Source: Methylomonas lenta
Lineage (GTDB): Bacteria; Pseudomonadota; Gammaproteobacteria; Methylococcales; Methylomonadaceae
Length of the DNA: 28,530 bases
NCBI RefSeq assembly: GCF_001644015.1
Contig: NZ_LUUI01000119.1
Span: 1 to 28,530 of the forward strand
Direction: 5' to 3'
Under the pieces are notes generated by a model that was not told the DNA's origin, ran no database searches, and was given only the letters and a program-made list of their open reading frames with translations. Positions 8,524 to 28,530 of this stretch are shown piece after piece. Position 1 is the first letter of the stretch; each line of letters opens with the position of its first letter. The translations under genes and the position numbers were made by a program.

Positions 8524-10597
<2,074 letters not shown>

Positions 10598-10695: not shown

Positions 10696-10953
10696 TTAAC
10701 AACAACGTGTTGAAACTGAACATTCATCTGATTCGGCCTTTTTGTTATCAACCTCTTTAACCTGATAACCTTTTTGTACAATGTGTTCAAGCAGTGATTC
10801 AAGACGGGTTTCACCGGTAACCGCCAGGATGCCGATACCTTCCGGGTACGAAACTTTAATCTCAACACCCTCAAGCGCATTGAGTTTTTTCTCGATACCA
10901 TCAGCACAGCTTGGACAGGTCATACCGCCAATTTTTAATTTTGTAGTCCACAT
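10696..10953 (-). CDS. Standalone HMA-domain protein, a duplicated NmerA module (85 aa) ending in CC
   Basis: [39 protein letters not shown] is nearly identical to the MerA N-terminus. SD AAGGAA precedes the ATG. It arises from a direct duplication with a 392-bp offset. Confidence 0.75.
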   Translation of the reverse strand: MWTTKLKIGGMTCPSCADGIEKKLNALEGVEIKVSYPEGIGILAVTGETRLESLLEHIVQKGYQVKEVDNKKAESDECSVSTRCC

Positions 10954-10967
10954 AATGATTCCTTGAA

Positions 10968-11294
10968 TTACTTTGGCTGATGAACAGTCGCCGGGTAACC
11001 GGCATTAGTAGTCGCTTTAATCAAAGCTTCTATGCTGGTTTTTTGCGGATCAAACGTGACATCTGCCATTTTAGTATCCCCATCGACATTTACCTTTTGT
11101 ACACCATCGACACCCTGCAAAGCCTTTTTAATGGTGATTTTACACATCGCACAGGTCATGTTCTGCATAGCTAATGTGACGGATTGGCTGCTTTGCTTTT
11201 GCACAGAAACAGTTGCCTCGGCATGGGCTGTCTGCATTAATAAAGATGCGGCCAACAAGCTCAACGTTAAACATACGGTTTTAATAGTCATCAT
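10968..11294 (-). CDS. merP: Periplasmic mercury-binding protein MerP (108 aa)
   Basis: Signal peptide ...LLMQTAHA, then an HMA fold with MTCAMC. Confidence 0.9.
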   Translation of the reverse strand: MMTIKTVCLTLSLLAASLLMQTAHAEATVSVQKQSSQSVTLAMQNMTCAMCKITIKKALQGVDGVQKVNVDGDTKMADVTFDPQKTSIEALIKATTNAGYPATVHQPK

Positions 11295-11302
11295 TATTCT
11301 CC

Positions 11303-11680
11303 TTAATCCATAAAAAACGGGGCATACCAGGGAAATGTCAACAGCAGCAAGATCAACGCCGAGCCAATCCAGAAGATCATCCGTTGCTTGTGCTTGACTT
11401 CGGGTAATGCACAGGCCTCGCCCTCTTCACAGCTATCCGGTATCAAATAGAGTTTGCGATACCCCAAACCAATAAAAATCAGGGTTACAATAATAAAATA
11501 AGGCCTGACCGTTTCCATTGAAGTGAAGGCGCTCATCCAAGCGCCGCCAATCCCTAAGGAAATAAGCAGCAAAGGGCCGACACAGCAGACCGATGCGCCA
11601 ATGGCCGCTAACACGGCGCCAATGCCTAGCCAGGATGGGTCTTCTGTGGGTGGTGTTTCATGTTCTGTAGTCATAAGCAT
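11303..11680 (-). CDS. merT: Mercury transporter MerT (125 aa)
   Basis: First TM has the vicinal pair SVCCVGPLLL. The cytoplasmic loop has the pair CEEGEAC. The topology and length are those of MerT. Confidence 0.9.
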   Translation of the reverse strand: MLMTTEHETPPTEDPSWLGIGAVLAAIGASVCCVGPLLLISLGIGGAWMSAFTSMETVRPYFIIVTLIFIGLGYRKLYLIPDSCEEGEACALPEVKHKQRMIFWIGSALILLLLTFPWYAPFFMD

Positions 11681-11773
11681 TTTCCTAAATAAAAACCAAG
11701 CGTCTGATAACCTGCATCCAGCGAGGGCATAAGATGAATGCGGAGAATGTCAGATTTTGAAAGTTCGGATAAG

Positions 11774-11805
11774 AGTCTAAACCCTGTACTACAGAACAGA
11801 GTCAA
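11774..11805 (-). promoter_or_regulatory. PmerT-like MerR operator/promoter copy C (-35 TTGACT, 20-nt spacer with dyad CTGTTCT-GT-AGTACAG, -10 TAGACT)
   Basis: Minus strand reads cgCTTGACTCTGTTCTGTAGTACAGGGTTTAGACTctt. It lies about 95 nt upstream of the merT ATG and directly after the merR stop codon. Confidence 0.6.
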
Positions 11806-11817
11806 GCGGAATTTACA

Positions 11818-12246
11818 TTATTTTTGTGGGTGTAGAGACGCAATGTTTTGCGTCTCTACGTTATTCGAAAGCGCATCGATGAGGGAACAATGTTCTGCAG
11901 AAGAATCACTCTGGCAGCGTTTCACCAGCGCATCCAATACACTGCGAAGCGCCGTTAAATCCTGTATTTGTGCATCGATTTGCCGACATTTCTGTTCGGC
12001 AATTTTTCTCACATCGGCGCAATGGTCGTCATCAAGCGATAACAGCTGGGCAATTTCTTTTAAGGTAAAACCCGCTTGTTGAGCACGTTTGATAAACCGG
12101 ATTCTGGTGATGGCATGGGCTGGATAGTGCCGAAAACCGGTACCGGGTTTACCGGGTTCATCCAGCATACCGATGCGCTGGTAATAACGGATGGTTTCAA
12201 CAGTGACTTCGGCTTGTTTGGCTAGATTGCCAATCGTAAGTTTCAT
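11818..12246 (-). CDS. merR: Hg(II)-responsive transcriptional regulator MerR (142 aa)
   Basis: HTH LTIGNLAKQAEVTVETIRYYQRIGML, the coiled-coil dimerisation helix, and Cys residues in DDDHCADV and RCQSDSSAEHCSLI that correspond to the MerR Hg-ligand cysteines. Confidence 0.9.
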   Translation of the reverse strand: MKLTIGNLAKQAEVTVETIRYYQRIGMLDEPGKPGTGFRHYPAHAITRIRFIKRAQQAGFTLKEIAQLLSLDDDHCADVRKIAEQKCRQIDAQIQDLTALRSVLDALVKRCQSDSSAEHCSLIDALSNNVETQNIASLHPQK

Positions 12247-13716: not shown

Positions 13717-13754
13717 GGGGTTTGAAGTCCAACGGTACGAAAACGTACGTTAGC
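13717..13754 (+). repeat. Tn3-type 38-bp terminal inverted repeat (tnpA-proximal end)
   Basis: GGGGTTTGAAGTCCAACGGTACGAAAACGTACGTTAGC compared with the Tn3 IR GGGGTCTGACGCTCAGTGGAACGAAAACTCACGTTAAG (recalled). It lies 33 nt from the tnpA stop. Confidence 0.85.
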
Positions 13755-13786
13755 GTCTAGCTTAATTCTATTTTCAGCAAAGACCA

Positions 13787-16700
13787 CTAAGGAAGGATGA
13801 TATTATTTTTTGATGACTGGTTTAGCGGCCTGAGTTGCCCCATCATGATTTGCTCTGCCAGTGTAAATGAGTAGTGCCCTAGCACATTGATATGTCCATG
13901 CAGCAAAGGCGATAGCCTTTTTTCATCTTCTTCTCTAATTTCTTGTGGCTGTTGCCGCAAATGATCCAGCGCTGCTTGCATATATAGGGTGTTCCATAAT
14001 ACGACGGCATTGGTTACCAATCCAAGCGCTCCCAGTTGATCTTCCTGCCCTTCGCGGTAGCGCTTGCGAATTTCTCCCCGTTGTCCATGGCAAATGACGC
14101 GAGCAACCGCATGCCGTCCTTCCCCCCGGTTTAGCTGTGTTAATATCCGCCGGCGGTAATCTTCATCGTCAATATAATTCAGCAGATACAAAGTCTTGTT
14201 GATGCGCCCCGCGTCGATGATGGCTTTAGTCAGACTGGATGGCCGATCACTTTTCAAAAGTGAACGGATAAGCTCTGATGCCTGTATGGTCCCCAGTTTA
14301 AGCGACCCGGCTATCCTCAGCATATCATCCCAGTGCTGTTCTATCCGGCGAGTATTGACAGAACCTCTGGCCAGATCATTGAGCACGCCATAATCCGCAT
14401 GTTTATCGATTCGCCAAAAAACCGCTTCACCGGCATCGGCCAAGCGCGGTGAAAATTGATAGCCAAGCAGCCAGAATAATCCAAACACTAAATCACTGGC
14501 TCCAGCGGTATCCGTCATAATTTCCGTTGGATTCAAGCCGGTCTGTTGCTCTAACAGTCCTTCCAAAACAAAGATAGAATCTCTCAATGTCCCAGGAACG
14601 ACGATGCCGTGGAACCCTGAAAATTGATCCGATAAAAAGTTATACCAAGTAATGCCCTTAGGGAAGTATTTCCTATTTGGCCCGGCATTAATCGTACGCA
14701 CAGGCGTCACCAATCGCATTCCGTCGGCAGAAGCCACTTCACCACCACCCCATTTTTTAGCCAAAGCGAGGGTTGATTGATGATCGACCAATCGGGCATT
14801 GGCCCGAACAAGCGTTTCTGCCCGCAGGTAGTTTTGCTTAACCCAATTCAGGCGATGGCGAGTCAGCGCCGGAATGTGGTGCTTGATTAAGGGTTCCAGT
14901 CCAATATTACAGGCTTCGGCCATGAGTACCGCACAAATACTGACCGATAAATCATTGGCACGAGCATTGGCTTCGCTTACATGCGTAAATTCATCGGCAA
15001 AGCCAGTATGAGTATGGATTTCCAATAGTAACTCGGTAAGATCCACTTTTGGCAATAATCCGGTCACCTGCTCATTGAGCCGAATGAGGCTGGGCGGCTC
15101 ATCCAGTTTATCCAGGTTGGTGATGGTTAAAGCCGGTTGCTTGCCGGAATTGTCAATCTTGACGGCTGCATTATCTGCAAAGTTGGCGGCAACTTGTTTA
15201 TAAGTGGCATCCAGTTGCTGTGTTAAGTTAGTAATTGCCTCATCGGGTTGTACCGGCTGTCCAATCGAGCGACAAACCTGGATTCGGTTTGCTTGCCAAT
15301 TAGCACCTTGCAGCAATTTTGCCCTGGGATCGCCCCAACGATCACTATTTTCAACATAGATATCGCGCCTTCGCAAGGCATCTTGTAATTTGTCGAGAAA
15401 ACACAGTGTGTATCCCCGTTTAGTGACTCGCCCGTCTTTATCAAAAATCAATCGCTTCCACGGAGCGGAAATAATATTCATGGGCGGCTTATCCAAAGTA
15501 TGTTTGCGTGATGTACCAGAAGCGGCAAGATAATTGAATGCAGAAAGCGTCGTTTCCCCGGCGGGCGCGGCCTTGAAAGTAATGTCATTGAGTAGTCGCG
15601 GTAAAAACCGGCAAACCCGACCATACTGCTCAATCAACTCATCATGAAATTTATCGTCATAGGGGCGGGCCAAATCCTGAACGATGGCAATCGATTCGGC
15701 TAATCTCTCTTTAGTGATCTGGGTAAAAATGACATCGCGTAACTGGCCGTCTTGTGTTTCTTCATTCAAAATCAGTGTACAGACATCCGCTAATGTCAGC
15801 GCAGATTTATCCAAATCTTTCAGTGTCCGTAACCGATTTTTCTGACCCATTCTTTTGGCATTACCCGCAATCTCGGTTATGAGTTGATCGAGTACATCCA
15901 AGGCATCATCCAGGGCAATGGTTTCAAAGGCCTTCACAAAAGCCACCAGGATTGCCGTACGCTTGTCCTCTGGCATTCTGGCTATTTTAGGTACCGTGAT
16001 AACACCCGCATGGCGGGCGAGGTTCTTCAATCGAACCGGTGGTATATGGGAAAAATCGATTTCTTGCATACCCAACGCCTTTAATTCAAGATAGCGTTCA
16101 ACGGATGCATTAAAGGCTGGCCCGCTGATGGTTACCGGGCCTTTCTGATAACGATCAAAAGCCGATGATCGTGTGCCTTCTGGCACTTTGAGTAAAGTTT
16201 CCAGTTTGGCTTTTTGCTCAAGTGTTGGTAAAACCGCTAATCGCCGCCACAATCGGTTAACCGCTCTTTCCCTGATTTCGGAAATCAGCCGTGATAAAGT
16301 CGTAGCACCAGGTAGCAGCACCTTGTTTTGATTCAGCCAGGCAGTAGCAAAGTCGAACATTAAGCCGGGTCTTTCGTTGCTGATCCAGGCACGGGTATAA
16401 AGTAACCGGCTAAGACGGAATGCCCAAGGTGGTTCGGTAAATTCGCGGTAGCCATATTGTTCGCGGATAAGCGCGGTGTGTTCGCGTTTAGTGGTATCCC
16501 TTTGGGCGTAATCCGCCAAAATAGCCACATCTCCAATCGAAAGCTGTCCGGCCACAAAGGCTTGGACGTTGGCTGGCACCAACGTTAGATCGGAAAGGAA
16601 GCATCCTAAAAACCTGACGGAAGTTAATTGCAGCGCAAAGCCAAGTCTATTTTGATCGCCACGGCGATTTAAAATGAATGTCAGGTCTGCTTCGTCAAGG

Positions 16701-16792
16701 TGAAAGTACCTTGCCAGTTGGATTTCATCTGGATCACCGGCAAATTGACCGTACTGAGCCTTCTGTTCTGCGGTTAAAAAATCGACGGCCAT
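13787..16792 (-). CDS. tnpA: Tn3-family transposase TnpA (1001 aa), close to Tn3 TnpA
   Basis: MAVDFLTAEQKAQYGQFAGDPDEIQLARYFHLDEAD..., GGGEVASADGMR, LNYIDDEDYRRRILTQLNRGE. It is collinear with Tn3 TnpA over its full length. Confidence 0.97.
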   Translation of the reverse strand: MAVDFLTAEQKAQYGQFAGDPDEIQLARYFHLDEADLTFILNRRGDQNRLGFALQLTSVRFLGCFLSDLTLVPANVQAFVAGQLSIGDVAILADYAQRDTTKREHTALIREQYGYREFTEPPWAFRLSRLLYTRAWISNERPGLMFDFATAWLNQNKVLLPGATTLSRLISEIRERAVNRLWRRLAVLPTLEQKAKLETLLKVPEGTRSSAFDRYQKGPVTISGPAFNASVERYLELKALGMQEIDFSHIPPVRLKNLARHAGVITVPKIARMPEDKRTAILVAFVKAFETIALDDALDVLDQLITEIAGNAKRMGQKNRLRTLKDLDKSALTLADVCTLILNEETQDGQLRDVIFTQITKERLAESIAIVQDLARPYDDKFHDELIEQYGRVCRFLPRLLNDITFKAAPAGETTLSAFNYLAASGTSRKHTLDKPPMNIISAPWKRLIFDKDGRVTKRGYTLCFLDKLQDALRRRDIYVENSDRWGDPRAKLLQGANWQANRIQVCRSIGQPVQPDEAITNLTQQLDATYKQVAANFADNAAVKIDNSGKQPALTITNLDKLDEPPSLIRLNEQVTGLLPKVDLTELLLEIHTHTGFADEFTHVSEANARANDLSVSICAVLMAEACNIGLEPLIKHHIPALTRHRLNWVKQNYLRAETLVRANARLVDHQSTLALAKKWGGGEVASADGMRLVTPVRTINAGPNRKYFPKGITWYNFLSDQFSGFHGIVVPGTLRDSIFVLEGLLEQQTGLNPTEIMTDTAGASDLVFGLFWLLGYQFSPRLADAGEAVFWRIDKHADYGVLNDLARGSVNTRRIEQHWDDMLRIAGSLKLGTIQASELIRSLLKSDRPSSLTKAIIDAGRINKTLYLLNYIDDEDYRRRILTQLNRGEGRHAVARVICHGQRGEIRKRYREGQEDQLGALGLVTNAVVLWNTLYMQAALDHLRQQPQEIREEDEKRLSPLLHGHINVLGHYSFTLAEQIMMGQLRPLNQSSKNNIILP

Positions 16793-16842
16793 CCATTTGC
16801 TCCAGACCAGAGGTAAAATCGAATTAAATATAAAGCTGTAGG

Positions 16843-16956
16843 TGTCTACAATATTATAAGATTGTGGACAGGGTAATTCATATGAAATAAACTGTCTATA
16901 AAATCGTTTTTCACATACTTAATAGACAATCCGTCCATTAATCGACTTAGGAGACA
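16843..16956. promoter_or_regulatory. res: res site of the Tn3-like element (subsites I-III)
   Basis: Site I, 16843-16870, TGTCTACAATATTATAAGATTGTGGACA: a 28-bp imperfect palindrome with a central TTATAA, as at the Tn3 crossover. Site II, 16893-16928: TGTCTAT-N22-ATAGACA. Site III ends at GAGACA 16951-16956, just before the tnpR ATG. Confidence 0.6.
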
Positions 16957-16963
16957 GTTTTAA

Positions 16964-17377
<414 letters not shown>

Positions 17378-17392
17378 TAGCAATAGCTAATG

Positions 17393-20300
17393 TTAAAGGT
17401 CGCTACCTTCTTCCACAGACTTACGCCAGAAATCAGGATCGTTATATCGTGCCGCCAACGCATCGATGTCAACCTTGGCGTTTTCTTCCGTAAATTCAAA
17501 CTTACCGATCAGATTCACATTTTGCCAGGCGACGGGCGACGTGCCTTTGATGATCTCGATAGCATCCTGGTCGCCGGTCGCCAGTTTTTGCTCATACACC
17601 CGCGACAAGATTAGCGTGTTGTAGTGGATGATGGCGTTGGCAATAAGCCGGGAACAATCGTTCCAGATTTGCTGCTCCGCTTCGGTTTTTACCCGGAATT
17701 TGCCGGCATTGACATAGGAAATGGCTCGTCGCATGCGATGATACGCCTCGCCGCGATTAAGCGCCTTTTGGATGCGCTGCCTGAGTATCGGGTCATCGAT
17801 GAAATCAAGGATATGAAGTGACCGATAAATATTGTCCAATTCCCATAGCGCCTTCTTGGTCTGGTTCTGCCGCTTATAACTGGCGAGCTTACGCACGATG
17901 GTTGCTTGAGTCACATCTTTTTGTGCAAGCGAAGCCAGAATGCGCTGGATATTCGGCCACTCCTTGCATATTAAGGTATCAAAGACCTTACGCGATGGCT
18001 TAAACAAGGCATCGCCATAACGGCTTGGGTGCTGGAACCCAACCAGGCTATCGATCTTTTTATGCAGGTCACGATAACGTGGCGAAAATTGGTAGCCGAA
18101 GACGCGCAAGATAAAGAAATTCACTTGATTGGTGCCATGCGTGTCCGTCGAATGCCTTTCCGGCTTGATCTCCGTTGTATTGTTGTACAGGATGTCGAAC
18201 ACGAAATGTGATTCGTGTTCGTGCGCACCGATAATTTTGGCATTAATCGGGACATGATTCATGGCCAAGGTAATGGAGTTTACGCCTTTCTTTAGCGCGA
18301 AAAACTTGCTGGAGTGTCGGGCATTGATCGTGTCGATCTGCGTGACTATATGCTGGCCGTCACTGCTAGAATGCTTCTGGTGGTGGATGTCGTACGCTTG
18401 GAAAACGGGTAACGCAGCCGTAGCGTTGGAAATGACGTCATTCGCTGCATGCAGCGTTTCCGCCCGCAGGAAATTGCGCGCCGTCGTCAGCAACGCAGAA
18501 TGACTAAGCCCTGAGACTTCCGCCATTTTCCATAAACCCATATTGGTACCCATGGCAACGATACAGGCCAGGATCAGTTTCGGATCGGCATCTTGTTTAA
18601 CGTAGCGTTCCAAAACGTGGGCAAATGATTTCAAGAATCCTGTTCTTTCAGCGACAAACCAAAGCAGGTCGGCCACGCCGATACTTGGCAATTGAGCATA
18701 GAAAGGACTGTTGGTTGGCTCTTCCTCGGAGGGATAAACCAACGTCCAGCGAAGCTTGTCCCCGCTACCGGTGATTTTGATATGTTTATTGTCGCCGCTT
18801 TCAATGCGCTGGTTCACTGATTTGTACTTGGCTTCCAGTTCCCGCTTGAGCGCGGCTAACGTATCCTGGATTGGTGTCAACAGAATCGGTGCGCCGATTT
18901 CTTGCAATATCGCGTCTCTATCCTTATTCCAGCGCTCGGTGTTGATCAGGTCGTCATCAAAGCTGCGAAATTCATTACTGTCCCGAACAAATACGTCACA
19001 GGCTTCAAGCGCCTTCCGTAGCTCGCGGTATACCAGGAACTCATAGCGATCAACCTCCAGGGTTTTCTTTTTTTGTTCTTCCGTCCGGGTATATAAATAC
19101 CGTTGCAAATTCTTTGCGATGATTCCGGTCGGGAAGTTGGCCGGGTTCATTTGTCGTGGTGTCTTGCCCTGGCGCAGCAGCTCCTGTAGAAACAAAATGG
19201 ATTCCAACAGTGGTTCATCCGACACCAGGCAGACGAAATCGAGGTTGCAGAACAAATGTCGTAAATTGAGCTTGAATTTGTGACGTAGCGTGCCGTAATA
19301 CGACCATTCAAAAGCGGTTTTATCGAATTCGATGTTACGCATAAAACCGGATACGACTGGAAAGCTCTCAATGTTGAGTAGCTCGAAAGCCTTTTCCTTG
19401 ATGGCCGCAAACGGTGTTTCGTCAGGGATGGAATTGTCGATGAACAGTTCCAGAACTTGGCCTGCCGCCTGTAGATTCGCGCCAGCCTCGTTGATGGCTT
19501 GCTGCATGGCCTCGTCGGCGGCAAGTTTGGCTTGTTTCTCGTATTGGCCAATGAGACAAATCAGGGCTTCGATCAAATTATCGTTGATTTGCCGAAAGCG
19601 ATGAAAGGCGAAGCACAGCAAATACAGGCGTGTCGTGGGTTCCGCCATGCGCCGCAGCTTGTAGACGGAGTAGAACGGAACCAATGATGCATAGTATTTT
19701 ATACTCTCATTGGACAGGCCGGCAGTACCCAGAAAGCTTTGCCCGAATTCATACAGCGGCTGAAAAAATTTGCGGCGGTCAACCTCCTGGCGTAACTCGC
19801 GGTAACTGAAATCCTTAGGCTCGTGTTTGAGTAGGCTGATGCGATACATGCCTTCCTCGGACTCAAGCAAGGCTTCGAGCTGCTTGTCGACATCCGGCGT
19901 CATGGCTTTTTTCAGTAAGTCCGTAATCCGCCGACGTTCACCAGTCACTACTCGGCTCACCATGTCCTGTAGATAAGTGTAGCCAGGAGCAATTAGGCGT
20001 TGGTTAGTAAGGTATTGTAAGGTTTCGCGTAGGATGTAAATCGGCTGTGTCGACAGCATGGCGACGCGCTGCGCTTTCTGTTCCAGTGCCGCCTTGGCTG
20101 TGCTGTCACATAGGCGGGAGTCGAATAACTGGAGGATAAGCTGCTGTTGTTCGAGCCGGGTCGGCTTGGAAAGGGTTTTGATCTTATCTAATGCCTGATC
20201 AGGGAAATACCGCTGGAGAATATAGTGTAGATCGTCGAGCACGGCCTCCCGCCCGTAAACAAAGAACTGTTGCTTGGCCTTGAAATACCCGATTTGAAGG

Positions 20301-20470
20301 ATTAAATGGACGGCCGATGAGCGGGTATGAATGGCATCGACGGCTTTCTGTTCAACCGCGCTTAAATCGAAGAAGAGACAACGGTCATCGTCGCTGAAAC
20401 AAGGCAACCCGTAAAGATCATCGATTTCACTTTTCGTCAGGATAGACAGGCGACGCGAATTGACACTCAT
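17393..20470 (-). CDS. tnpA: Tn3-family transposase TnpA (1025 aa)
   Basis: The N-terminal DUF4158-like region reads LTKSEIDDLYGLPCFSDDDRCLFFDLS. The C-terminal DDE_Tnp_Tn3 motifs are SSSDGQH..., STDTHGTNQVNF, and ILDFIDDPILRQRIQKALNRGEAYH. The gene ends 15 nt from the IR. Confidence 0.95.
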   Translation of the reverse strand: MSVNSRRLSILTKSEIDDLYGLPCFSDDDRCLFFDLSAVEQKAVDAIHTRSSAVHLILQIGYFKAKQQFFVYGREAVLDDLHYILQRYFPDQALDKIKTLSKPTRLEQQQLILQLFDSRLCDSTAKAALEQKAQRVAMLSTQPIYILRETLQYLTNQRLIAPGYTYLQDMVSRVVTGERRRITDLLKKAMTPDVDKQLEALLESEEGMYRISLLKHEPKDFSYRELRQEVDRRKFFQPLYEFGQSFLGTAGLSNESIKYYASLVPFYSVYKLRRMAEPTTRLYLLCFAFHRFRQINDNLIEALICLIGQYEKQAKLAADEAMQQAINEAGANLQAAGQVLELFIDNSIPDETPFAAIKEKAFELLNIESFPVVSGFMRNIEFDKTAFEWSYYGTLRHKFKLNLRHLFCNLDFVCLVSDEPLLESILFLQELLRQGKTPRQMNPANFPTGIIAKNLQRYLYTRTEEQKKKTLEVDRYEFLVYRELRKALEACDVFVRDSNEFRSFDDDLINTERWNKDRDAILQEIGAPILLTPIQDTLAALKRELEAKYKSVNQRIESGDNKHIKITGSGDKLRWTLVYPSEEEPTNSPFYAQLPSIGVADLLWFVAERTGFLKSFAHVLERYVKQDADPKLILACIVAMGTNMGLWKMAEVSGLSHSALLTTARNFLRAETLHAANDVISNATAALPVFQAYDIHHQKHSSSDGQHIVTQIDTINARHSSKFFALKKGVNSITLAMNHVPINAKIIGAHEHESHFVFDILYNNTTEIKPERHSTDTHGTNQVNFFILRVFGYQFSPRYRDLHKKIDSLVGFQHPSRYGDALFKPSRKVFDTLICKEWPNIQRILASLAQKDVTQATIVRKLASYKRQNQTKKALWELDNIYRSLHILDFIDDPILRQRIQKALNRGEAYHRMRRAISYVNAGKFRVKTEAEQQIWNDCSRLIANAIIHYNTLILSRVYEQKLATGDQDAIEIIKGTSPVAWQNVNLIGKFEFTEENAKVDIDALAARYNDPDFWRKSVEEGSDL

Positions 20471-20488
20471 GCGGCACCGCTTTTCGGC

Positions 20489-20621
20489 GAGTGCAGAAAG
20501 TACACTTTTTGCACTCTGCGTTCACTCATCCTTTCCAATTTCAATTCCTTTCATTTTGAGTGCAGAAACCTTTGCCAAAATCATAATGCATTTAACTGTG
20601 CAATGTGTTAACTTTTTGCAC
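20489..20621. promoter_or_regulatory. res: res region of the nested transposon (three GTGCA/TGCAC dyads)
   Basis: 20489-20516 is GAGTGCA-N14-TGCACTC, a 28-bp dyad of site I type. 20558-20592 is GAGTGCAGAAA...AATGCAT. 20598-20621 is GTGCA-N14-TGCAC, abutting the tnpR ATG. Confidence 0.5.
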
Positions 20622-20622
20622 T

Positions 20623-21228
20623 ATGCAAACCAATACTACCTCTACCACTACGCCATTCCATCGAGTCGGTTATGCCCGAGTCAGCAGTATCGGCCAAAAT
20701 CTGGATTCTCAAATTGATGCGCTGCAAAAAGCGGGGTGCCGCAAAATATTTTCCGACAAGATGACCGGTTCGCATATGGATCGTCCCGGCTGGGATCAGC
20801 TTTTAGAATATGCTCGCCCAGGCGATACCTTGGTCGTCAGCGAATTAAGCCGAATGACGCGCTCTTTGATGGATTTACTGACAACGGCAAAGGTGCTGGA
20901 ACAGCGGCAAATTAACTTAGTGTCACTGCGTGAAAATATCGACACCACCACGGCTACTGGCCGTTGTTTCTTGTCAATGATGGGCGCTATTCACCAAATG
21001 GAGAGGGAGCTACGCTCTGAGCGGGCGGCAGCAGGACGCTCATCCGCTAAAGCGCGTGGCAAAACGGGTGGAAGACCTAAAACTGACCCTGCAAAATTGG
21101 AGAATGCCAGAATATTATACGAAAACTCAGACAAAACCGCCGCCGAGGTTTGTGAGATTGCCGGAGTTGGGAGAAGGAAATTCTTTTCCCACATCGCAGC
21201 AAAACGAAATGATTCTGGTAAAACTTAA
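20623..21228 (+). CDS. tnpR: Serine recombinase / resolvase (201 aa from ATG 20623; the track start is GTG 20605)
   Basis: RVGYARVSSIGQNLDSQ has the catalytic Ser. It also has VVSELSRMTRS, SAKARGKTGGRPK and a C-terminal HTH. It is divergent from tnpA. Confidence 0.9.
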   Translation: MQTNTTSTTTPFHRVGYARVSSIGQNLDSQIDALQKAGCRKIFSDKMTGSHMDRPGWDQLLEYARPGDTLVVSELSRMTRSLMDLLTTAKVLEQRQINLVSLRENIDTTTATGRCFLSMMGAIHQMERELRSERAAAGRSSAKARGKTGGRPKTDPAKLENARILYENSDKTAAEVCEIAGVGRRKFFSHIAAKRNDSGKT

Positions 21229-21236
21229 AACATCAA

Positions 21237-21674
21237 ATGAGCTACATAACTTGGTTTACAGAACATGGAAATAAACATAAAGCTATAGTTGAAAAATTAC
21301 AAGCTAAAGGTTTAAGTAAAGAAAATATTGTCGATTATTTTGACTTCGATAATATGGTGAAATCTGAATCTGACTTTTGCGAACTTTACGCTGACAGGAA
21401 AAAATGCCACGATGTGGAGAATCTAAACTGTTATCTTTGTGCATGTCCATTATTTCGATTCAATTCTAATGGCATAGAAAAAATCGACGATAAAACTGCT
21501 TTCAGTTACTGTGAAGTAAACTCAAAATTTGGGCATCAGGGTGTTTTTAGAGATGAAATTCATCAAGACTGTTCACAGTGTACCGTTCCTCATAGCAAAA
21601 AATATGTTTTGAGGAATTACGACAATTGGTTTTCGGTCATGGCAAGCTGTGATGTATCAATTATTACTAATTGA
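21237..21674 (+). CDS. Cysteine-rich protein (145 aa), resembling the 'cysteine-rich small domain' zinc-finger-like family
   Basis: CHDVENLNCYLCACPLFRF...SYCEV...HQDCSQCTVPH follows the pattern C-x7-C-x2-C-x-CP...DCxxCxxPH. The family assignment is from memory only. Confidence 0.45.
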   Translation: MSYITWFTEHGNKHKAIVEKLQAKGLSKENIVDYFDFDNMVKSESDFCELYADRKKCHDVENLNCYLCACPLFRFNSNGIEKIDDKTAFSYCEVNSKFGHQGVFRDEIHQDCSQCTVPHSKKYVLRNYDNWFSVMASCDVSIITN

Positions 21675-21693
21675 CGGGCTAAGGGAAATAAGT

Positions 21694-22044
21694 ATGAATC
21701 TTCTGGAAAAGTCAGACGAAGAAATTTTCAATGAGATAACCCCCATCATGGATAATATGATGGAAGGTTCCACTGAAATTAATCATGCTAAGCATACTCG
21801 TGACTTTACAGATAGGATGAAAGCCATTGTCACCCCGGAAAATCTTCAAATCATGTGTAAGGACTACCAGGCAAGGTGGGGTTTATTTGGTAAGCGAGAG
21901 TTTGTCGCCCTGTTTAGACGTAAGCATTCGATAGCAGTGGTCTGGAAACAATATTGCTCCAATTCGACAGATGAGCATGTTGCCGAGGCGGTGTTCGTCG
22001 AACATGATAATCGTTTGCTGATAGATCATGCTATGGTCTATTAA
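21694..22044 (+). CDS. Hypothetical protein (116 aa from ATG 21694 with SD AAGGGA; the track ORF starts at 21649)
   Basis: Complete ORF between the Cys-rich gene and the methyltransferase gene, on the same strand. No family was recognised. Confidence 0.4.
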   Translation: MNLLEKSDEEIFNEITPIMDNMMEGSTEINHAKHTRDFTDRMKAIVTPENLQIMCKDYQARWGLFGKREFVALFRRKHSIAVVWKQYCSNSTDEHVAEAVFVEHDNRLLIDHAMVY

Positions 22045-22074
22045 ATTTATAACAATACGGTTTCAGAGTGGCTT

Positions 22075-22561
22075 GTGAGTTTAATGGTTATTGCCGGAAC
22101 TGAAGGGTATACCGAGAGCGCCGATTCTCTAATCGCACGGTACGAGAGAGTTTCGTTTGCCGAGAAATACGAGTCTGTCTTTCACTTGATGCCAGAAAAG
22201 ACAAGCGATGTTTTGGACATCGGTGCGGGCACAGAAGCCGATGCTGCTTGGTTCGCGGCGGCGGGACTCGGGTGCTCGCCGTTGAGCCAACGGATCGCCT
22301 TCGAGATTCTGCGAAAGCGATTCACCCATCGCCGCTGATCGAGTGGGTTGCCGATAGCCTTCCCTATCTACGAAAGCTAATTTCCCTTGGACAAAGCTTT
22401 GACCTTGTACTCTTGACTGCGGCATGGATGCACCTAACCCGGCAAGAACGTCAGAAAGCAATGCCCAACGTCGCCGCATTGCTCAAAGTAGATGGAGTTC
22501 TGCTTATGTCGCTTCGGCATGGGCCTGTTCCAGAAAATCGGAGAATGTTCCATGTATCAGT
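22075..22561 (+). pseudogene. Class I SAM-dependent methyltransferase, 5' part; frameshifted near 22266-22268 and interrupted at 22561 by the 5-kb element
   Basis: SAM motif VLDIGAGTEADAAWFAAAG in frame A, then RVLAVEPTD...FDLVLLTAAWMHL...LLMSLRHGPVPENRRMFHVS in frame B (ORFs 22075..22338 and 22248..22613). The reading frame resumes at 27581 (VDYTILLAEREGLRNTLSIEVQSAQ*). Confidence 0.85.
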
Positions 22562-22660
22562 TGCATATTCCACACCAAACCAGCCACCCATTCCGATTGA
22601 AATCCGCCACTGATTCTGATTCAAACCCGGCCATCAATTCCGACACGATTACGCCAGAAG
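22562..22660 (+). repeat. Left-end array of four 23-24-bp putative transposase-binding repeats
   Basis: The units start at 22562, 22590, 22613 and 22637: TGCATATTCCACACCAAACCAGCCACCC / ATTCCGATTGAAATCCGCCACTG / ATTCTGATTCAAACCCGGCCATCA / ATTCCGACACGATTACGCCAGAAG. The consensus is ATTCCGAT-n4-AAAYCCGCCA. Confidence 0.8.
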
Positions 22661-22893
22661 TGAATGTTGGCTGTTGTGAAGGCTAACTGGTGCTGTCGAC
22701 CCTTTCCCGCCATACACCTTTCTCCAAAGCGGCCGAATGCCCAAGTATTGTTTTTTGGGTTTCGCTTCTACAAAGCAGCCTTTCGTGGTCTCCGGCAGCC
22801 GGCCATCACCGGAAACTCGGGTCGGTAGGATGAGTATCTGGTCAAAGCCTTTCTCAGTGCATGGCAAAACACATCCGTCCGGATTGCGAGGAA

Positions 22894-22921
22894 ATATACG
22901 AAACGTATATAATTCGTATAT
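22894..22921 (+). promoter_or_regulatory. Operator-like repeats upstream of the ParD-like gene
   Basis: ATATACG-aaa-CGTATAT-aatt-CGTATAT combines an inverted and a direct repeat of a 7-mer. It lies 22-49 nt before the ATG at 22943. Confidence 0.35.
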
Positions 22922-22942
22922 GTTTCATATGCGAGGTCGCTG

Positions 22943-23197
22943 ATGGGTATTGTAAAAATTTCGGAACAGATGCACGAGAACCTGCGCGTGGCGGGGAACG
23001 CGCTAAGCAGATCAATCAATGCCCAGGCCGAACACTGGATGCGAGTCGGCATGTTGACCGAGCTACACCCAGAGCTGGACTATAGGGAAATCTGCCAACT
23101 TTTGATACGGGCTGAACTGGCGGGAGGACTAGACATCGCCGGCGCAGTAACAGGACAACTTGGCAAGACCGATACATTCACGGCCGAAAAACACTGA
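22943..23197 (+). CDS. ParD-like (ribbon-helix-helix type) antitoxin-family protein (84 aa)
   Basis: MGIVKISEQMHENLRVAGNALSRSINAQAEHWMRVG matches the remembered signature of the ParD_like family. Its stop overlaps the map start (TGATG). Confidence 0.55.
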   Translation: MGIVKISEQMHENLRVAGNALSRSINAQAEHWMRVGMLTELHPELDYREICQLLIRAELAGGLDIAGAVTGQLGKTDTFTAEKH

Positions 23198-23988
23198 TGG
23201 CCCACGGCGTTTCCATCAAGTCGGTTGAGGAGCTCGAAATGACGCGCCGGGCCGGACGACTCGCCGCTGAGGTTCTCAGCATGGTTGAGGCATACGTGGC
23301 GCCCGGCGTGAGCACAGAGACGCTCGACCAAATCTGCCACGAGCACATCGTGAATGTCCAGGGCGCCATTCCAGCCAACGTCGGGTATCACGGGTATCCC
23401 AAGACTATTCTTACCTCCGTCAACCAGGTGGTTTGTCACGGCATTCCCTCAGCCGACAAGATTCTGAAGAAGGGCGACATCATCAACATTGATGTCGCCG
23501 TCATCAAGGATGGCTGGTTCGGCGACACCAGTCGCATGTACTTTGTCGGCGTCCCCAGTGTGTTGGCTCGGCGCTTGGTGGAGACGACATACGAAGCATT
23601 GCTGGCCGGAATCCGGCAGGTTAAGCCGGGAGCCACTCTTGGCGATATTGGCCACGCAATCCAGTCGGTTGCTCAACGAGAACATTTCAGCGTAGTACGC
23701 GAATACTGCGGACACGGCATTGGGCAGGTCTACCACGATGAACCTAAAGTGCTTCACTACGGACGGCGCGGGGAAGGGCTCAAACTGGAGCCGGGGATGG
23801 TATTCACCATTGAGCCGATGCTCAATGCAGGCAAACGCGAAACCAAGGAATTGCCTGACGGATGGACAGTCGTGACAAAGGACAGGTCGCTATCCGCCCA
23901 GTGGGAGCACATGGTGGCGGTAACGCCTTCCGGGTATGAAGTGCTTACCCCTTGGACGGGCGCCACAGTTTCATACGCAGCGGTTTGA
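23197..23988 (+). CDS. map: Type I methionine aminopeptidase (263 aa)
   Basis: All five metal ligands are in conserved contexts: NIDV, GDTSRM, CGHGIG, FTIEPM and SAQWEHMVAVT. It is collinear with E. coli Map. Confidence 0.95.
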   Translation: MAHGVSIKSVEELEMTRRAGRLAAEVLSMVEAYVAPGVSTETLDQICHEHIVNVQGAIPANVGYHGYPKTILTSVNQVVCHGIPSADKILKKGDIINIDVAVIKDGWFGDTSRMYFVGVPSVLARRLVETTYEALLAGIRQVKPGATLGDIGHAIQSVAQREHFSVVREYCGHGIGQVYHDEPKVLHYGRRGEGLKLEPGMVFTIEPMLNAGKRETKELPDGWTVVTKDRSLSAQWEHMVAVTPSGYEVLTPWTGATVSYAAV

Positions 23989-24382
23989 CACTCAACCAGG
24001 GTGTGGTTTGGCTTTAGGCAGTTGTTCCTTGTGGGCTGGCAACCACGGTTTCAAGTCTTGCATTGCTCAACTTGCAGCCACAATTGAATGTCCGCATCCG
24101 CTGCGATACTGGCCCTACAGAATACTGAGTTGAATGTCGCTTGAGGTCGTCGGCGACCGTCTTCTCTTCAGACTCATCGCCGGAAAGCGGTCAATAAAAT
24201 TCCGATTCCCGAAAGCGGCCAGTCGTCACTGAGTGCAGCCGACCCGTTGCAGACATTCGGATATGAATTTAAACTTCCCAATAGCGGTCATTGGCAAAGT
24301 AGCACTATCGATTCATTATGCCGGCCTTGCCTAGTGTTCTTCATTGTACGCCGGGTTTTTAGCATAGGTGTATTATGAGATG

Positions 24383-24877
24383 TCAGTCTTCCATCTGTTC
24401 TAATTCTTCAGCAAATTCGTTTATTTCATTTGCAATTGATTCCATTTTTTCAATCATGCTTCTTCTTACTTCTGGTCCTTGGCCCTCTATCTTTATTTTA
24501 AAAATTTCAATTTGTGCTTGCATTGAGGCTGTTTTTATCTGCCCTATATTTATACTATTTGCATATTCTTGAGCTTTAACTTGGGCGTTCAACTCTGCTC
24601 TTGATGCTTTCATTTCATCCCTTTGCAGTTTAAGTTCTTTACGTTGTAGATAGATTGTGTAAATGATACCTGCAAATGCTAAACCGCTAAATAATGCGTT
24701 TATAGAGCCGAAAAGGTCGCCGAATTGGCCGCGTGATGGCCAATCAGGTAAGTTATTGAATACACTCCACCACATTATCCCCCAAAGAATAATAGCCCCA
24801 ACAACTAACCATATTAGCAATGAAATGCTTTCTTCTTTATTTTGATTTTCCGACATGTTTTTTCCTTTTTTAGACAT
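24383..24877 (-). CDS. 2-TM membrane protein with C-terminal coiled coil (164 aa; alternative ATG at 24856 has SD AAGGA), reminiscent of putAbiC-type abortive-infection proteins
   Basis: TM1 is ISLLIWLVVGAIILWGIMWWSVF. The motif GQFGDLFGSINALFSGLAFAGIIYTIYLQRKELKLQRDEM follows, and then heptad-rich sequence. It lies 107 nt downstream of thsB on the same strand. Confidence 0.45.
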   Translation of the reverse strand: MSKKGKNMSENQNKEESISLLIWLVVGAIILWGIMWWSVFNNLPDWPSRGQFGDLFGSINALFSGLAFAGIIYTIYLQRKELKLQRDEMKASRAELNAQVKAQEYANSINIGQIKTASMQAQIEIFKIKIEGQGPEVRRSMIEKMESIANEINEFAEELEQMED

Positions 24878-24984
24878 GTTGAGGTACGAACCCCAACACT
24901 TTCTGGTTCCGATCTGTTAGGCTTCCTTGCGTGAGCTCAATCTACTGCACTAAAGCTGGTAGGAGGATTACCCGCTGAATTGAG

Positions 24985-25587
24985 CTACCGCCCGGCCAGA
25001 TCTGCGGCTAATTCTATCCATCCGGCTATGTTTTTTCGTCCGTCTTGGGCTATGAAATCGTAACGTTCACAGTGCTTCGAAAGCGTGACCACCTGCTTGC
25101 TTGTCGGAGCATCGAACCACAGGTCGCTTTCAGGAATAGGGCGCGTGTAGTCGCTGTACTTTACCCATTTATCCCCGTTCTTCTCGGCGAAGTAAATTCC
25201 GTTTTCTGTTTTGTACAACCCGATGCAAGTAAGCGGGTCCACTCCTTTGGTACAGGTTTTACCATCCTTATTTTCAACTTTGTTAATGTCTACGGTCAGT
25301 AACCCGTTCCCCTTCAACACACTTTGGACAATTTCATACCTAACCCAACGCCTAGCCGACGTCTCGGCACCAGCGAGTATGCAAGTGACTGAAGTATTCT
25401 TTAGTCCATTTCTAAGGAAAGTTTTAAGATTATCTTCGCTTTCTTTCTTGGAAGCCTCGAAGACGCTACTGTCGAAAAAGCCGTCGGTAAACAGCCCTTC
25501 AGGTTTCACAACTCCACAGTTTCGTACGTTCCAAACTCTCCAATTGTCTGGTGTATAGTGAAACGAGAAAAAAGTTCTTCTAGCCAT
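24985..25587 (-). CDS. thsB: Thoeris ThsB, TIR-like (DUF1863-type) domain protein (200 aa)
   Basis: MARRTFFSFHY...VRN...NTSVTCILAGAETSARRWVRYEI parallels Bacillus ThsB (MAKRVFFSFHY...NTSVTCVLIGSQTFNRRWVRYEI). It lies directly downstream of thsA. Confidence 0.85.
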   Translation of the reverse strand: MARRTFFSFHYTPDNWRVWNVRNCGVVKPEGLFTDGFFDSSVFEASKKESEDNLKTFLRNGLKNTSVTCILAGAETSARRWVRYEIVQSVLKGNGLLTVDINKVENKDGKTCTKGVDPLTCIGLYKTENGIYFAEKNGDKWVKYSDYTRPIPESDLWFDAPTSKQVVTLSKHCERYDFIAQDGRKNIAGWIELAADLAGR

Positions 25588-25648
25588 TTGGTATGTTCCT
25601 TATTAAAAAAAGTAAAAATGTAAGGGTGAAATTGATCAAGTGATCGCC

Positions 25649-27079
25649 TTATTTGTTCAGCTTCTTGATGAGCTGTACTAGTTTTTGAACTAACTCGGCG
25701 TTGGGTGTTGTCGGGTTCGACAATTCTGCTACGAGAGGTTCGACCCATTTGATGCCCTTATAGTGCTTATCGGGGGCGTCTATGACCGTCTCATATATTG
25801 TCTTCGAGGCATAACCGGTAGCTCCAACTGGGATCACGACTACTCCTTTCTGTACAGCGATTTCGAACTCCCTAATGACACCGTTTGCCTCGACTACCTC
25901 ACCGTCAACAAGTTTGTTGCCAAAAACGAAAATAGCTATGCCAGCCAGCGAGATCATTCGCTGTCTATACTCTTCCCATAGCTGCTGCAAGTCTTGAGAA
26001 CTGCTCGCAAATTGTGGGAAAGGGCGCATCACGAGCTGGTCCTCGGATAATTTTTCAGGATTTGAGTAAATTGCCTCAAGCGCACCGTTTATAACCGCGC
26101 TCCCGATACCCCATCCAAAACCGTTTACGACTCTGAAACCTTCACGTACAAGGCCAGCGGTCAATGTATGAACAAAAGTTTGGCCTTCCTGTCTAGACAA
26201 GTTACCAAACTCCTCAGCGCTTCCTGAAATAAACACAGTTTTCTTCCGAAAACGTGTTTCGATTTCTTTTAGGATACAGGGAATTTCTACGTAATCATCT
26301 ATGAGCAGCGTCTGGATTCCAAAGCGTTTGAGGTCGTCTACCCGGAGTTCTTGTTTGCGCTGCTTGTACTTCGTGACTTCATCGTCATCTCCGATCTGTA
26401 CTATCTCTCGTCGCAAGAAGCAGTAGTGCTGTCGCATCGGTTGGTTGACGTAAAGTCTACTAAGAACATAATCCAGGTTCGGATCTGTAAAGCTAAAACC
26501 AATGAAAAGAAAAGTTTTCGCGACGAGATCCCCGCTTAGAGCTGTTACGAACGGAGAGTGCGTCTGATAATATCGTTCATATTGTTGCTTATAGATTACA
26601 GCTTCATTTGCGACTGTGACATCGCCATGCATTTTGTAGACAACTGCGTCCCGTTTCGGACGAGTCGTATTCAATTGGCTAACACTATGCTTGATATCGG
26701 CCACTTTATAGGCACGTTTCAAGGCATCTTCAATTAGGCTGTCATAATTCGTAGTCCAGTATGTTCCGATAGGTAAGCGTGAAAGTATTTCATGGGTTTC
26801 CGATGGCTCTGCCTGTTCGGAAAATTCCTGTAGTATCTTTTTCGCGAGTCCTGCGCTGCTTTTCCGTTCGTTCACATGGAACTGGGTCAATGAAATCAGG
26901 TCGTGTTCATTTTCAACTTTAAGCCCCAATTCGTCTGCGATGTCCCTGAGCAGTTCGGGCCAATCTACATAGCCGCAACTCTTGGACATTCCGGCACCAG
27001 CGAAAACTGCTACATTGTTTTCTTCTAAGTCTTTGACAAAATCTTTGATAAAAGCTTCGATCTCTCGGCTAAAAGTCAT
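25649..27079 (-). CDS. thsA: Thoeris ThsA, N-terminal SIR2 NADase plus C-terminal SLOG signal-binding domain (476 aa)
   Basis: FAGAGMS, YWTTNYDSLIE, DAVVYKMHGD and FLFIGFSFTDPNLDYVLSR form the SIR2 part. TVFISGSAEEF...VVNGFGWGIGSAVINGALE...VIPVGATGYA is the SLOG Rossmann-like part. It is collinear with B. cereus MSX-D12 ThsA as recalled. Confidence 0.9.
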   Translation of the reverse strand: MTFSREIEAFIKDFVKDLEENNVAVFAGAGMSKSCGYVDWPELLRDIADELGLKVENEHDLISLTQFHVNERKSSAGLAKKILQEFSEQAEPSETHEILSRLPIGTYWTTNYDSLIEDALKRAYKVADIKHSVSQLNTTRPKRDAVVYKMHGDVTVANEAVIYKQQYERYYQTHSPFVTALSGDLVAKTFLFIGFSFTDPNLDYVLSRLYVNQPMRQHYCFLRREIVQIGDDDEVTKYKQRKQELRVDDLKRFGIQTLLIDDYVEIPCILKEIETRFRKKTVFISGSAEEFGNLSRQEGQTFVHTLTAGLVREGFRVVNGFGWGIGSAVINGALEAIYSNPEKLSEDQLVMRPFPQFASSSQDLQQLWEEYRQRMISLAGIAIFVFGNKLVDGEVVEANGVIREFEIAVQKGVVVIPVGATGYASKTIYETVIDAPDKHYKGIKWVEPLVAELSNPTTPNAELVQKLVQLIKKLNK

Positions 27080-27502
27080 ATGGATTGATTTTTTAAAAAA
27101 TTAATATGGATTAATGAATCGAGTTTGTATCACCTAAAAAGATGCTGCTCGAATTATTTGATTTTATACCGCTAAATGCTACGACTAAAATTTAAATGCA
27201 TGTGAGCATTCGCTTAATGGCTTCAATATGTAAGGTGCAACAAGTACCTGGTGGAATCTGCGGAATCCAGCGCGTAGGTTGGGCTGACGCAGAAAACCCA
27301 ACGGGAATCGGAACCGAAAAGTGTTGGTTTTCATTCTGTCATATTCATCACCATAAAGCGGCCATTCGTGACAGGCAGAAATTGGCCGGATCGAGCCAAA
27401 GAGGACGCAAGGTTGCTTGCCGAAAAGCGGTCATTCGCTGAACTTAGGGATGGAAAATTTCGCCGGCGCCCTCAACGGCCGGTTATGGCCGGTCGGCGCC
27501 AC

Positions 27503-27573
27503 TGGCGGGTTTCGATTGGAATTCCTGGCGGGTTTGACATCGGAATCGGTGGCGGATTTCATTGGAATACGCA
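27503..27573 (-). repeat. Right-end array of three 22-24-bp putative transposase-binding repeats (inverted relative to the left array)
   Basis: The plus strand reads TGGCGGGTTTCGATTGGAATTCC (27503-27525), TGGCGGGTTTGACATCGGAATCGG (27526-27549) and TGGCGGATTTCATTGGAATACGCA (27550-27573, the terminus). Confidence 0.8.
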
Positions 27574-27656
27574 TATCAGTCGACTATACAATCCTGCTTG
27601 CCGAACGGGAAGGTCTGCGCAACACTCTAAGCATCGAAGTACAGTCTGCCCAGTAA
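27574..27656 (+). pseudogene. Methyltransferase 3' fragment (includes the right TSD copy at 27574-27580)
   Basis: Joining ...TTC CAT GTA TCA GT (22561) to C GAC TAT ACA... (27581) gives FHVSVDYTILLAEREGLRNTLSIEVQSAQ*. Confidence 0.85.
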
Positions 27657-27757
27657 TCAATCGCCAAGCCGGTGTAACGTGGTCATGGCTTGCCTTCAGC
27701 AAAAGTTACGCCTAGCCCTTCATTAAGGTGATTGACGATCTCTATAAGTGTTCTCTG

Positions 27758-27793
27758 ATTTTTACCTTTTCGAGGGGATGGGCAAAAATAGCC
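27758..27793 (-). repeat. Right terminal IR of the nested Tn3-family transposon
   Basis: Exact reverse complement of 17342-17377, followed by the TSD copy AACGT at 27794-27798. Confidence 0.93.
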
Positions 27794-27978
27794 AACGTAC
27801 TAATGAAGGCCGCATCGAGGCCAAGGCCAAGGGAGTGAAGTTTGGTCGCAAACGCACTATCGATACCGAAAAACTAAGGACATTACGTAAGAATGGTCTA
27901 GGCGCTACCGATATTGCCAAGCAAATGGGCATTGGGCGGTCAACCGTTTACAAATTGCTGAATGAAACGGATGAGTGA
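27794..27978 (+). pseudogene. tnpR: Tn3-type resolvase tnpR, 3' fragment (HTH domain)
   Basis: [59 protein letters not shown] continues the fragment at 16967-17341. Compare Tn3 TnpR ...[23 protein letters not shown].... Confidence 0.9.
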
Positions 27979-28304
27979 GGGTAATCTTGAGACTTACATT
28001 GTTGCGTAGGAATACTTTGGCGGCTACCCACTTTACAACATCAAATCAGCCTCATTTATAAACATGAAAATAAAATAATCTATAATTGCATTAATGTTCA
28101 ACAGCTTATAAAAATTATTATCGACGTTTTTAAAATCGATATTTCCTCTGTAAGACGATTATAGCAAGGCTTTCAGGGGTGTCGCGGGACAAACCGTTCT
28201 TTTGGTGAATTAACCCCTTTTCGCATGTGATTGCCGTTATTCTCAATTAACGCTAACGGTGATCGGCAATATTTGCCTCTGATGCCTAACGCACCGCCTC
28301 CAGT

Positions 28305-28342
28305 GGTTAACGTACGATTTTTCCGAATTCTATACTTCCCCC
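28305..28342 (-). repeat. Tn3-family 38-bp IR, of the Tn501/Tn1721 sequence type, facing left
   Basis: The reverse complement GGGGGAAGTATAGAATTCGGAAAAATCGTACGTTAACC resembles the remembered Tn501/Tn1721 IR GGGGGAACCGCAGAATTCGGAAAAAATCGTACGCTAAG. Against the IR at 13717 it shares only the GGGG end, GAAGT and GAAAA..CGTACGTTA. Confidence 0.55.
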
Positions 28343-28530
28343 TAAAAGGCCAAGGCATTTATGCCTATGTCACATTAAATCATGGTGTAAAAGGCACTGA
28401 TGAATTGAAACAGGCACTTGCCGATTTACGATGGTTAAGGTTGTTGGGCATGTTTTTCATGGCGTGCTCAAGACCTAATCAAGCCATCGAGCTGATGGTC
28501 TTGCGGAAACGGGTCAGCGCCAGCACGAAA

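Follow-up and report, generated by a model that had tools for sequence, protein, structure and literature searches.

The mechanism of the Thoeris anti-phage system, the carriage of ThsB as cargo of Tn7-like transposons and the existence of cassettes that lack a transposase are all known already. ThsB has been counted in 61 Tn7-like transposons, in a study that also noted nested Tn3-family elements (Benler et al. 2021, PMC8649781). Transposase-less cassettes are represented by mobile insertion cassettes (MICs), such as MIC231 of Bacillus cereus, which derives from the insertion sequence (IS) IS231 (concept cited in PMC3281130). Here, we describe a locus in a 28,530-bp stretch of DNA from Methylomonas lenta (contig NZ_LUUI01000119.1, positions 1–28530; hereafter, the window), which is very probably a canonical two-gene type I Thoeris operon, carried as cargo of a cassette with IS21-type ends that is nested in two Tn3-family transposons. 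The nested vehicle is the only unusual feature of this otherwise ordinary and intact Thoeris system, and our literature search found no paper on the locus or on a Thoeris-carrying IS21-type cassette. The locus leaves the general understanding of Thoeris and of transposon cargo unchanged; it presents a clean, well-delimited abortive-infection system of the signalling type within three successive layers of mobile elements.

The thsA-thsB operon

A preliminary description of the window had assigned two adjacent open reading frames (ORFs) to Thoeris from short motifs in their translations. Both ORFs lie where that description had placed them, all of the motifs (FAGAGMS, TTNYD, KMHGD, FSFTDPNLDY, FFSFHY and RRWVRYEI) are found in the translations, and the proposed SIR2-SLOG and TIR assignments are borne out by profile searches. 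Specifically, thsA (positions 25649–27079, minus strand) is predicted from Pfam, PADLOC and PDB matches to encode a SIR2-SLOG NADase effector of 476 aa. In Pfam, this protein matches SIR2_2 across aa 106–232 (E-value = 1.1e-27) and the SLOG family STALD across aa 265–473 (E-value = 3.2e-77), the latter alignment covering profile positions 1–210 of 211, and the PADLOC model ThsA1 is matched end to end (E-value = 2.2e-202). It aligns with the ThsA of PDB entry 8WC0, which comes from Escherichia coli (PMC12700824), at 62 per cent identity over 473 aa (E-value = 6e-202), and over its full length with B. cereus ThsA (BcThsA; PDB 6LHX) at 47 per cent identity (E-value = 4e-141). More than 5,000 relatives of ThsA were found at E-value <= 1e-100. 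A look-up of the exact ThsA sequence returned no record, probably due to a differing start-codon call.

For the functional residues, we took the catalytic roles and ligand contacts of BcThsA from an earlier report (bioRxiv 10.1101/2022.05.07.491051). In the residue alignment, the catalytic N112 and H152 of BcThsA correspond to N111 and H151 of the M. lenta protein, which are the SIR2 asparagine and histidine that the preliminary description had singled out. When mapped onto BcThsA, seven of the eight residues that form the pocket for the cyclic ADP-ribose isomer 3'cADPR are kept (BcThsA G289, S290, Q359, R371, K388, G399 and E403, corresponding to G286, S287, Q356, R372, K389, G400 and E404, respectively). 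The eighth, L326 of BcThsA, is replaced by W323, as it is by a tryptophan in E. coli ThsA, and a tryptophan here would be compatible with adenine stacking.

The second gene, thsB (positions 24985–25587, minus strand), begins 61 bp downstream of thsA on the same strand, and its 200-aa product is predicted to be the TIR-like sensor and signal synthase, again from Pfam, PADLOC and PDB matches. It matches Pfam ThsB_TIR (E-value = 6.8e-22) and PADLOC ThsB1 (E-value = 1.6e-54), and its aa 1–191 align with B. cereus ThsB (PDB 6LHY and 9B7D) at 38 per cent identity (E-value = 5e-33). The catalytic glutamate, also named in the preliminary description, is conserved as E85 within RRWVRYEI. The protein is identical to WP_066984322.1 of M. 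lenta, and its UniRef label is Thoeris ThsB TIR-like. Type II Thoeris systems have a Macro/transmembrane (TM) effector. Since the effector of the M. lenta operon is of the SIR2-SLOG kind, the operon belongs to type I and not to type II.

By homology with the characterized Bacillus systems, ThsB would sense infection and use its catalytic E85 to make 3'cADPR from NAD+. This signal would occupy the conserved SLOG pocket of ThsA, and its binding would turn on the SIR2 NADase (N111 and H151); the activated ThsA would then deplete NAD+, and the infection would be aborted.

A cassette nested in two Tn3-family transposons

A cassette of 5,012 bp without a transposase (positions 22562–27573) holds the operon, and this cassette is an insertion relative to a Tn3-family element on a plasmid of Methylomonas sp. 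LL1 (NZ_CP064652; record L001). Window positions 17412–22561 are 95.7 per cent identical to L001 positions 924–6062, and positions 27574–27796 are 93.3 per cent identical to L001 positions 6056–6279. Two copies of the 7-bp target-site duplication TATCAGT (positions 22555–22561 and 27574–27580) abut the insertion, and the empty site in LL1 has a single copy, TATCGGT (GTATCGGTCGAC). IS21-family elements with direct repeats of 7–8 bp have been tabulated (PMC3281130). The insertion splits a gene of the surrounding transposon for a SAM-dependent methyltransferase (positions 22084–22561 and 27581–27715), which is also frameshifted and hence a pseudogene; the gene is intact in the LL1 plasmid.

The ends of the cassette read TGCATATTCC... 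and ...GGAATACGCA. Both termini begin with TGC(A/G)TATTCC, and each has about three subterminal repeats of ~22 bp of the form ATTCCnnnnnAAAnCCGCCA. The left terminus (positions 22562–22645, plus strand; about three such repeats) is of the right-inverted-repeat (IRR) type, being 82 per cent identical over 82 bp to the istB-adjacent end of an IS21-family element on a plasmid of Methylomonas DH-1; the second end of the DH-1 element was not found. The right terminus (positions 27492–27573, minus strand; three such repeats) lies upstream of thsA and is of the left-inverted-repeat (IRL) type. It matches the istA-proximal end of a complete IS21-family element on the Acidithiobacillus caldus SM-1 megaplasmid, in which istA directly follows that end. 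The A. caldus element (record L022, positions 1505–4071) has ends that start with TGCGTATTCC, shares the repeat architecture of the cassette and is flanked by an 8-bp duplication (TTGCTTAT). In plasmids of Serratia and Rhizobium, similar ends adjoin fragments of istA/istB. In all, four independent records have termini of this type beside an istA or istB gene or a fragment of one.

Searches by tblastn with two IstA/IstB pairs detected no remnant of either gene within positions 22562–27573, and the ORF inventory agrees. The genes thsA, thsB and a third gene, orf164, run from the IRL-type end toward the IRR-type end, and in an intact IS21 element istA-istB are placed and oriented in the same way. 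The preliminary description had proposed a small non-autonomous element nested inside two Tn3-family transposons, and the junctions, the duplications and two empty-site comparisons establish this nesting; its termini identify this small element more precisely as a cassette derived from the IS21 family. Apart from orf164, thsB and thsA, its cargo consists of a parD-like gene (84 aa; Pfam ParD_like, E-value = 4.5e-31) and map, which encodes a type I methionine aminopeptidase (263 aa; Pfam Peptidase_M24, E-value = 3.3e-52). These two genes occupy positions 22943–23988 on the plus strand, and the parD-like stop codon overlaps the map start codon (ATGA). The pair, an odd antitoxin-like/Map module, also occurs on plasmids of Polaromonas naphthalenivorans (85 per cent nucleotide identity) and Ideonella (79 per cent). 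PADLOC returned no match for the parD-like and map genes or for the cargo ORFs of the surrounding transposon, and we therefore rejected a defence role for them.

The transposon that surrounds the cassette (hereafter, the inner transposon; positions 17342–27793; 10,452 bp) is apparently autonomous and is bounded by inverted repeats (IRs) of 39–40 nt with 98 per cent identity (positions 17342–17380 and 27755–27793) and by the 5-bp target-site duplication AACGT (positions 17337–17341 and 27794–27798). Its tnpA (positions 17393–20470, minus strand) is intact and encodes a protein of 1,025 aa with matches to Pfam DDE_Tnp_Tn3 (E-value = 4e-125) and DUF4158, its tnpR (positions 20605–21228, plus strand) encodes a serine resolvase (Pfam Resolvase, E-value = 6e-42), and the intergenic region between tnpA and tnpR holds a 29-nt direct repeat (starting at 20491 and 20598). 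The inner transposon is inserted into, and splits, the resolvase gene of another Tn3-family transposon (hereafter, the outer transposon), and the corresponding empty site is present at 100 per cent identity on the conjugative plasmid of Nitrosomonas sp. sh817 (NZ_CP133084.1). When the inner transposon and one copy of its target-site duplication are excised in silico, the 184-aa resolvase of the sh817 plasmid is recreated exactly.

The outer transposon, delimited from Pfam matches and the sh817 plasmid, starts at position 13717 with its left IR (GGGGTTTGAAGTCC...) and runs off the window at position 28530. It has an intact tnpA (positions 13787–16792, minus strand; Pfam) and a tnpR on the plus strand that is split into positions 16967–17341 and ~27799–27978. 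The sh817 plasmid carries this transposon uninterrupted and is 100 per cent identical to window positions 13717–17341 and 27794–28530. In the sh817 record, the inverted partner IR lies at positions 18080–18118, which gives an element of ~17.1 kb with efflux cargo; with the partner IR that far away, the window ends while still inside the outer transposon.

The identity of the outer transposon extends across two classes, as M. lenta belongs to the Gammaproteobacteria and Nitrosomonas sp. sh817 to the Betaproteobacteria, and such sequence identity implies a very recent transfer between them. The sh817 plasmid is conjugative. The locus illustrates concretely how genes for defence can travel between methane- and ammonia-oxidizing bacteria of water and wastewater communities. 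Thoeris could move with the inner transposon, the tnpA of which is intact, with the outer transposon or with the host replicon. Because the resolvase of the outer transposon is disrupted, resolution of its cointegrates would need another recombinase.

Possible mobility of the cassette, state of the operon and neighbouring genes

Several observations weigh against the reading of the locus as an active type I Thoeris system carried by a mobile cassette. Scans of plasmids, genomes and metagenomes did not recover the cassette with this cargo a second time. In a simple scan for a narrow consensus, the minus strand 5' of thsA had no sigma-70-like promoter and no terminator, and the counts of the scan did not exceed those of shuffled sequences. 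ThsB is only 38 per cent identical to the characterized BcThsB, and we infer phage protection, 3'cADPR synthesis and NAD+ depletion at this locus by homology only. Finally, the module is not always maintained: metagenome contigs L002–L008 are homologous to window positions 24330–26744 at 99.3 per cent identity, and in them thsA is cut at approximately codon 113, just past the catalytic asparagine, by another IS-like end (TGTCAACAGCAACCC...). The other side of the break adjoins the start of an IS256-like transposase gene. In natural populations, ISs are therefore breaking up and rearranging the Thoeris module. A search of 5,426 complete E. coli genomes with the Thoeris region yielded no match.

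If a related IS21 element supplied IstA and IstB in trans, the cassette could move alone. A possible, if somewhat doubtful, alternative is that it never moved as a unit: an intact IS21 element would have inserted into the inner transposon, leaving the 7-bp duplication, and would later have lost istAB and gained its modules in situ. On this reading, what remains is an IS in decay and not a mobilizable cassette. Such a history would fit the lack of any other cassette copy and the mosaic nature of the cargo, in which the parD-like/map pair has a G+C content of 55.7 per cent versus 43.3 per cent for the block of Thoeris and orf164, and the Thoeris part has separate homology boundaries at positions 24330 and 27123. 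It would also fit the direct-repeat units that flank the Thoeris module itself. However, the terminal sequence is complete at both ends of the cassette, and each end has kept about three of the subterminal repeats. Mobilization in trans would need these features, which would not be expected to survive decay. The absence of the cassette from the scanned collections does not disprove its mobility.

The flanking units are direct copies of ~130–160 bp that bracket the block of Thoeris and orf164 at positions ~24180–24330 and ~27331–27493. Each contains two AAAGCGGYCAKTSG motifs 69 nt apart, and the resulting four matches compare with 0.11 expected, for a pattern that was chosen post hoc. The right unit is 83–88 per cent identical to intergenic sequences that occur in two to three copies on plasmids of methanotrophs (Methylotuvimicrobium and Methylomonas), and a 41-bp piece of the unit lies just upstream of an orf164 homologue in unrelated contigs. 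We found no Rfam family and no unusual RNA fold for the unit, and its arrangement in a Methylotuvimicrobium alcaliphilum plasmid bears no consistent relationship to genes. The AAAGCGGYCA motifs were considered as inverted ends of the Thoeris module, and this was rejected because their orientation is that of direct repeats. Candidate roles for the unit are a recombination site, an iteron and a regulatory region.

Scans for the terminus pattern in genomes and metagenome contigs recovered related ends in five genomes and two metagenome contigs, none with the Thoeris cargo. An IS21-type terminus together with the inner sequence of the left end (GATTACGYCAGWAGTGAATG...) recurs, with no adjacent istAB, in Methylomonas, Methylobacter and Nitrosomonas genomes (records L020 and L023 from LL1 plasmid 53013, and L024, L025, L026 and L028). 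In L020 from LL1, a serine recombinase gene is located a few hundred bp from the terminus, and the same holds for a related IS21-type end in Methylomonas koyamae (L011). These recurring ends may be remnants or sibling cassettes; in L030 and the LL1 region L023, neither ORFs nor repeats revealed a clear second cassette. A bolder proposal, which we consider unlikely, is that IS21-family ends define an unrecognized class of trans-mobilizable cassettes on methanotroph and nitrifier plasmids, in which a defence operon would replace istA-istB in both place and orientation. If this proposal were true, the leader that once served istA might drive transcription of the operon, Thoeris could hop between Tn3-family transposons and conjugative plasmids by means of the IstAB of resident IS21 copies, and the bracketing direct repeats could mark a further mechanism of cassette exchange.

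It is improbable that the operon is a relic, silent or in decay, without a remaining role in host defence. The failure to detect a consensus promoter 5' of thsA and the IS-disrupted thsA of the near-identical metagenome copies point in that direction. However, the promoter scan was limited to a narrow consensus, the reading frames of thsA and thsB are both intact and full-length with their catalytic and ligand-binding residues in place, and thsB is preceded by a ribosome-binding site, AAGGAA, which we read 8 nt 5' of its ATG. Moreover, comparison with the operon of Ca. Methylobacter oryzae gave ratios of nonsynonymous to synonymous substitution rates (dN/dS) of 0.10 for thsA and 0.15 for thsB, which indicates that both genes are under purifying selection. 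The region 5' of thsA gave no Rfam match, and its fold z-scores (-0.15 to -1.0) revealed no structured RNA.

The gene orf164 (positions 24383–24877, minus strand) encodes a protein of 164 aa, or 157 aa from the second ATG, in which we read two hydrophobic helices and a coiled-coil-like tail directly from the sequence and not from the output of a tool; it is predicted to be a two-TM, coiled-coil protein. No match was obtained in Pfam, PADLOC or NCBIfam. The family comprises ~700 (694) small, uncharacterized membrane proteins without a Pfam domain, some of which are encoded next to toxin-antitoxin or integrase genes. It is very unlikely that orf164 supplies an extra effector or regulator of a three-gene Thoeris variant, even though it follows thsB on the same strand after a gap of 107 bp, accompanies it in all 14 contigs with the exact ThsB (99 per cent identity in metagenome contigs) and encodes two hydrophobic helices that recall the membrane effectors of other defence systems, because the closest thsAB operon (93 per cent identity in ThsA) lacks it and nucleotide homology to that operon ends at position 24978, the next-closest ThsA (83 per cent), with two TIR genes beside it, has no orf164-like partner, the 694 homologues sit in unrelated contexts that lack Thoeris, and PADLOC has no match to it. 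On this gene-context evidence, we rejected orf164 as a Thoeris component; it is probably a hitch-hiking neighbour.

To the left of the nested transposons lies a mer cluster (positions 7361–12246, minus strand), in which Pfam matches indicate merR, merT, merP, merA, a second MerR-like gene, a merC-like gene, a YHS gene and a merE-like gene. The preliminary description had suggested that mercury resistance and phage defence can be transferred together. The cluster is indeed nearby, but it is outside the cassette and both transposons, ~1.5 kb to the left of the IR of the outer transposon, and co-transfer with Thoeris is thus limited to the level of the replicon. It lies between this IR and the resolvase gene of a third Tn3-family element.

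That third element is partial (window positions 1–2996), with a transposase ORF on the minus strand that runs off the window edge and a resolvase gene at positions 2352–2996; it is ~87 per cent identical to elements on plasmids of Methylobacter YRD-M1 and Methylomonas DH-1, and its right IR was not found within the window. The TauE, cobW and mer genes are candidates for its cargo. A 62-nt sequence occurs three times in this part of the window (positions 5674–5735, 6231–6292 and 11760–11821), and its minus strand reads CTTGACTCTGTTCT..GTAC... By eye, the copies resemble a mer operator/promoter. They precede merT, a gene for a MerT-TauE fusion (positions 4467–5591) and a gene for a cobW-like GTPase (positions 6302–7315), which suggests three MerR-controlled operons. 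A direct duplication of 238 nt with 84 per cent identity (positions 10331–10568 and 10723–10960) spans the 5' end of merA, where the HMA domain is encoded, together with the stretch that separates merP from merA.

Comparison with known systems

Compared to the type I Thoeris of B. cereus MSX-D12 (ThsA, PDB 6LHX and 8BTO; ThsB, PDB 6LHY), the M. lenta operon has the same two-gene architecture and domain order. The two systems align over the full length of their proteins and share the catalytic asparagine, histidine and glutamate, as well as seven of the eight pocket residues. They differ in sequence (47 per cent identity in ThsA and 38 per cent in ThsB), in the replacement of L326 by W323, in the host, which is a gammaproteobacterial methanotroph and not a Firmicute, and in the carriage of the M. 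lenta operon on nested transposable elements. The closest solved relative is the E. coli ThsA (8WC0; 62 per cent identity), and the two proteins have in common the tryptophan at the adenine-stacking position.

The closest operon overall is the thsAB of Ca. Methylobacter oryzae (RYFG02000091.1), with identities of 93 per cent in ThsA and 87 per cent in ThsB. The nucleotide identity of 90 per cent spans exactly thsA and thsB (window positions 24978–27123). Unlike the M. lenta operon, that of Ca. M. oryzae is in a chromosomal-looking location among toxin-antitoxin modules, without IS21 ends, Tn3 elements or orf164. The next-closest ThsA (83 per cent) is accompanied by two different TIR genes, and such pairing is part of the usual variability of Thoeris.

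With regard to its vehicle, the locus resembles MICs in having passenger genes between IS-type inverted-repeat ends, no transposase and a target-site duplication. It differs from them in its IS21-family ends with multiple subterminal repeats and in its defence cargo. With the ThsB-carrying Tn7-like transposons it shares a defence system as cargo, whereas the vehicles in M. lenta are an IS21-type cassette and Tn3-family transposons.

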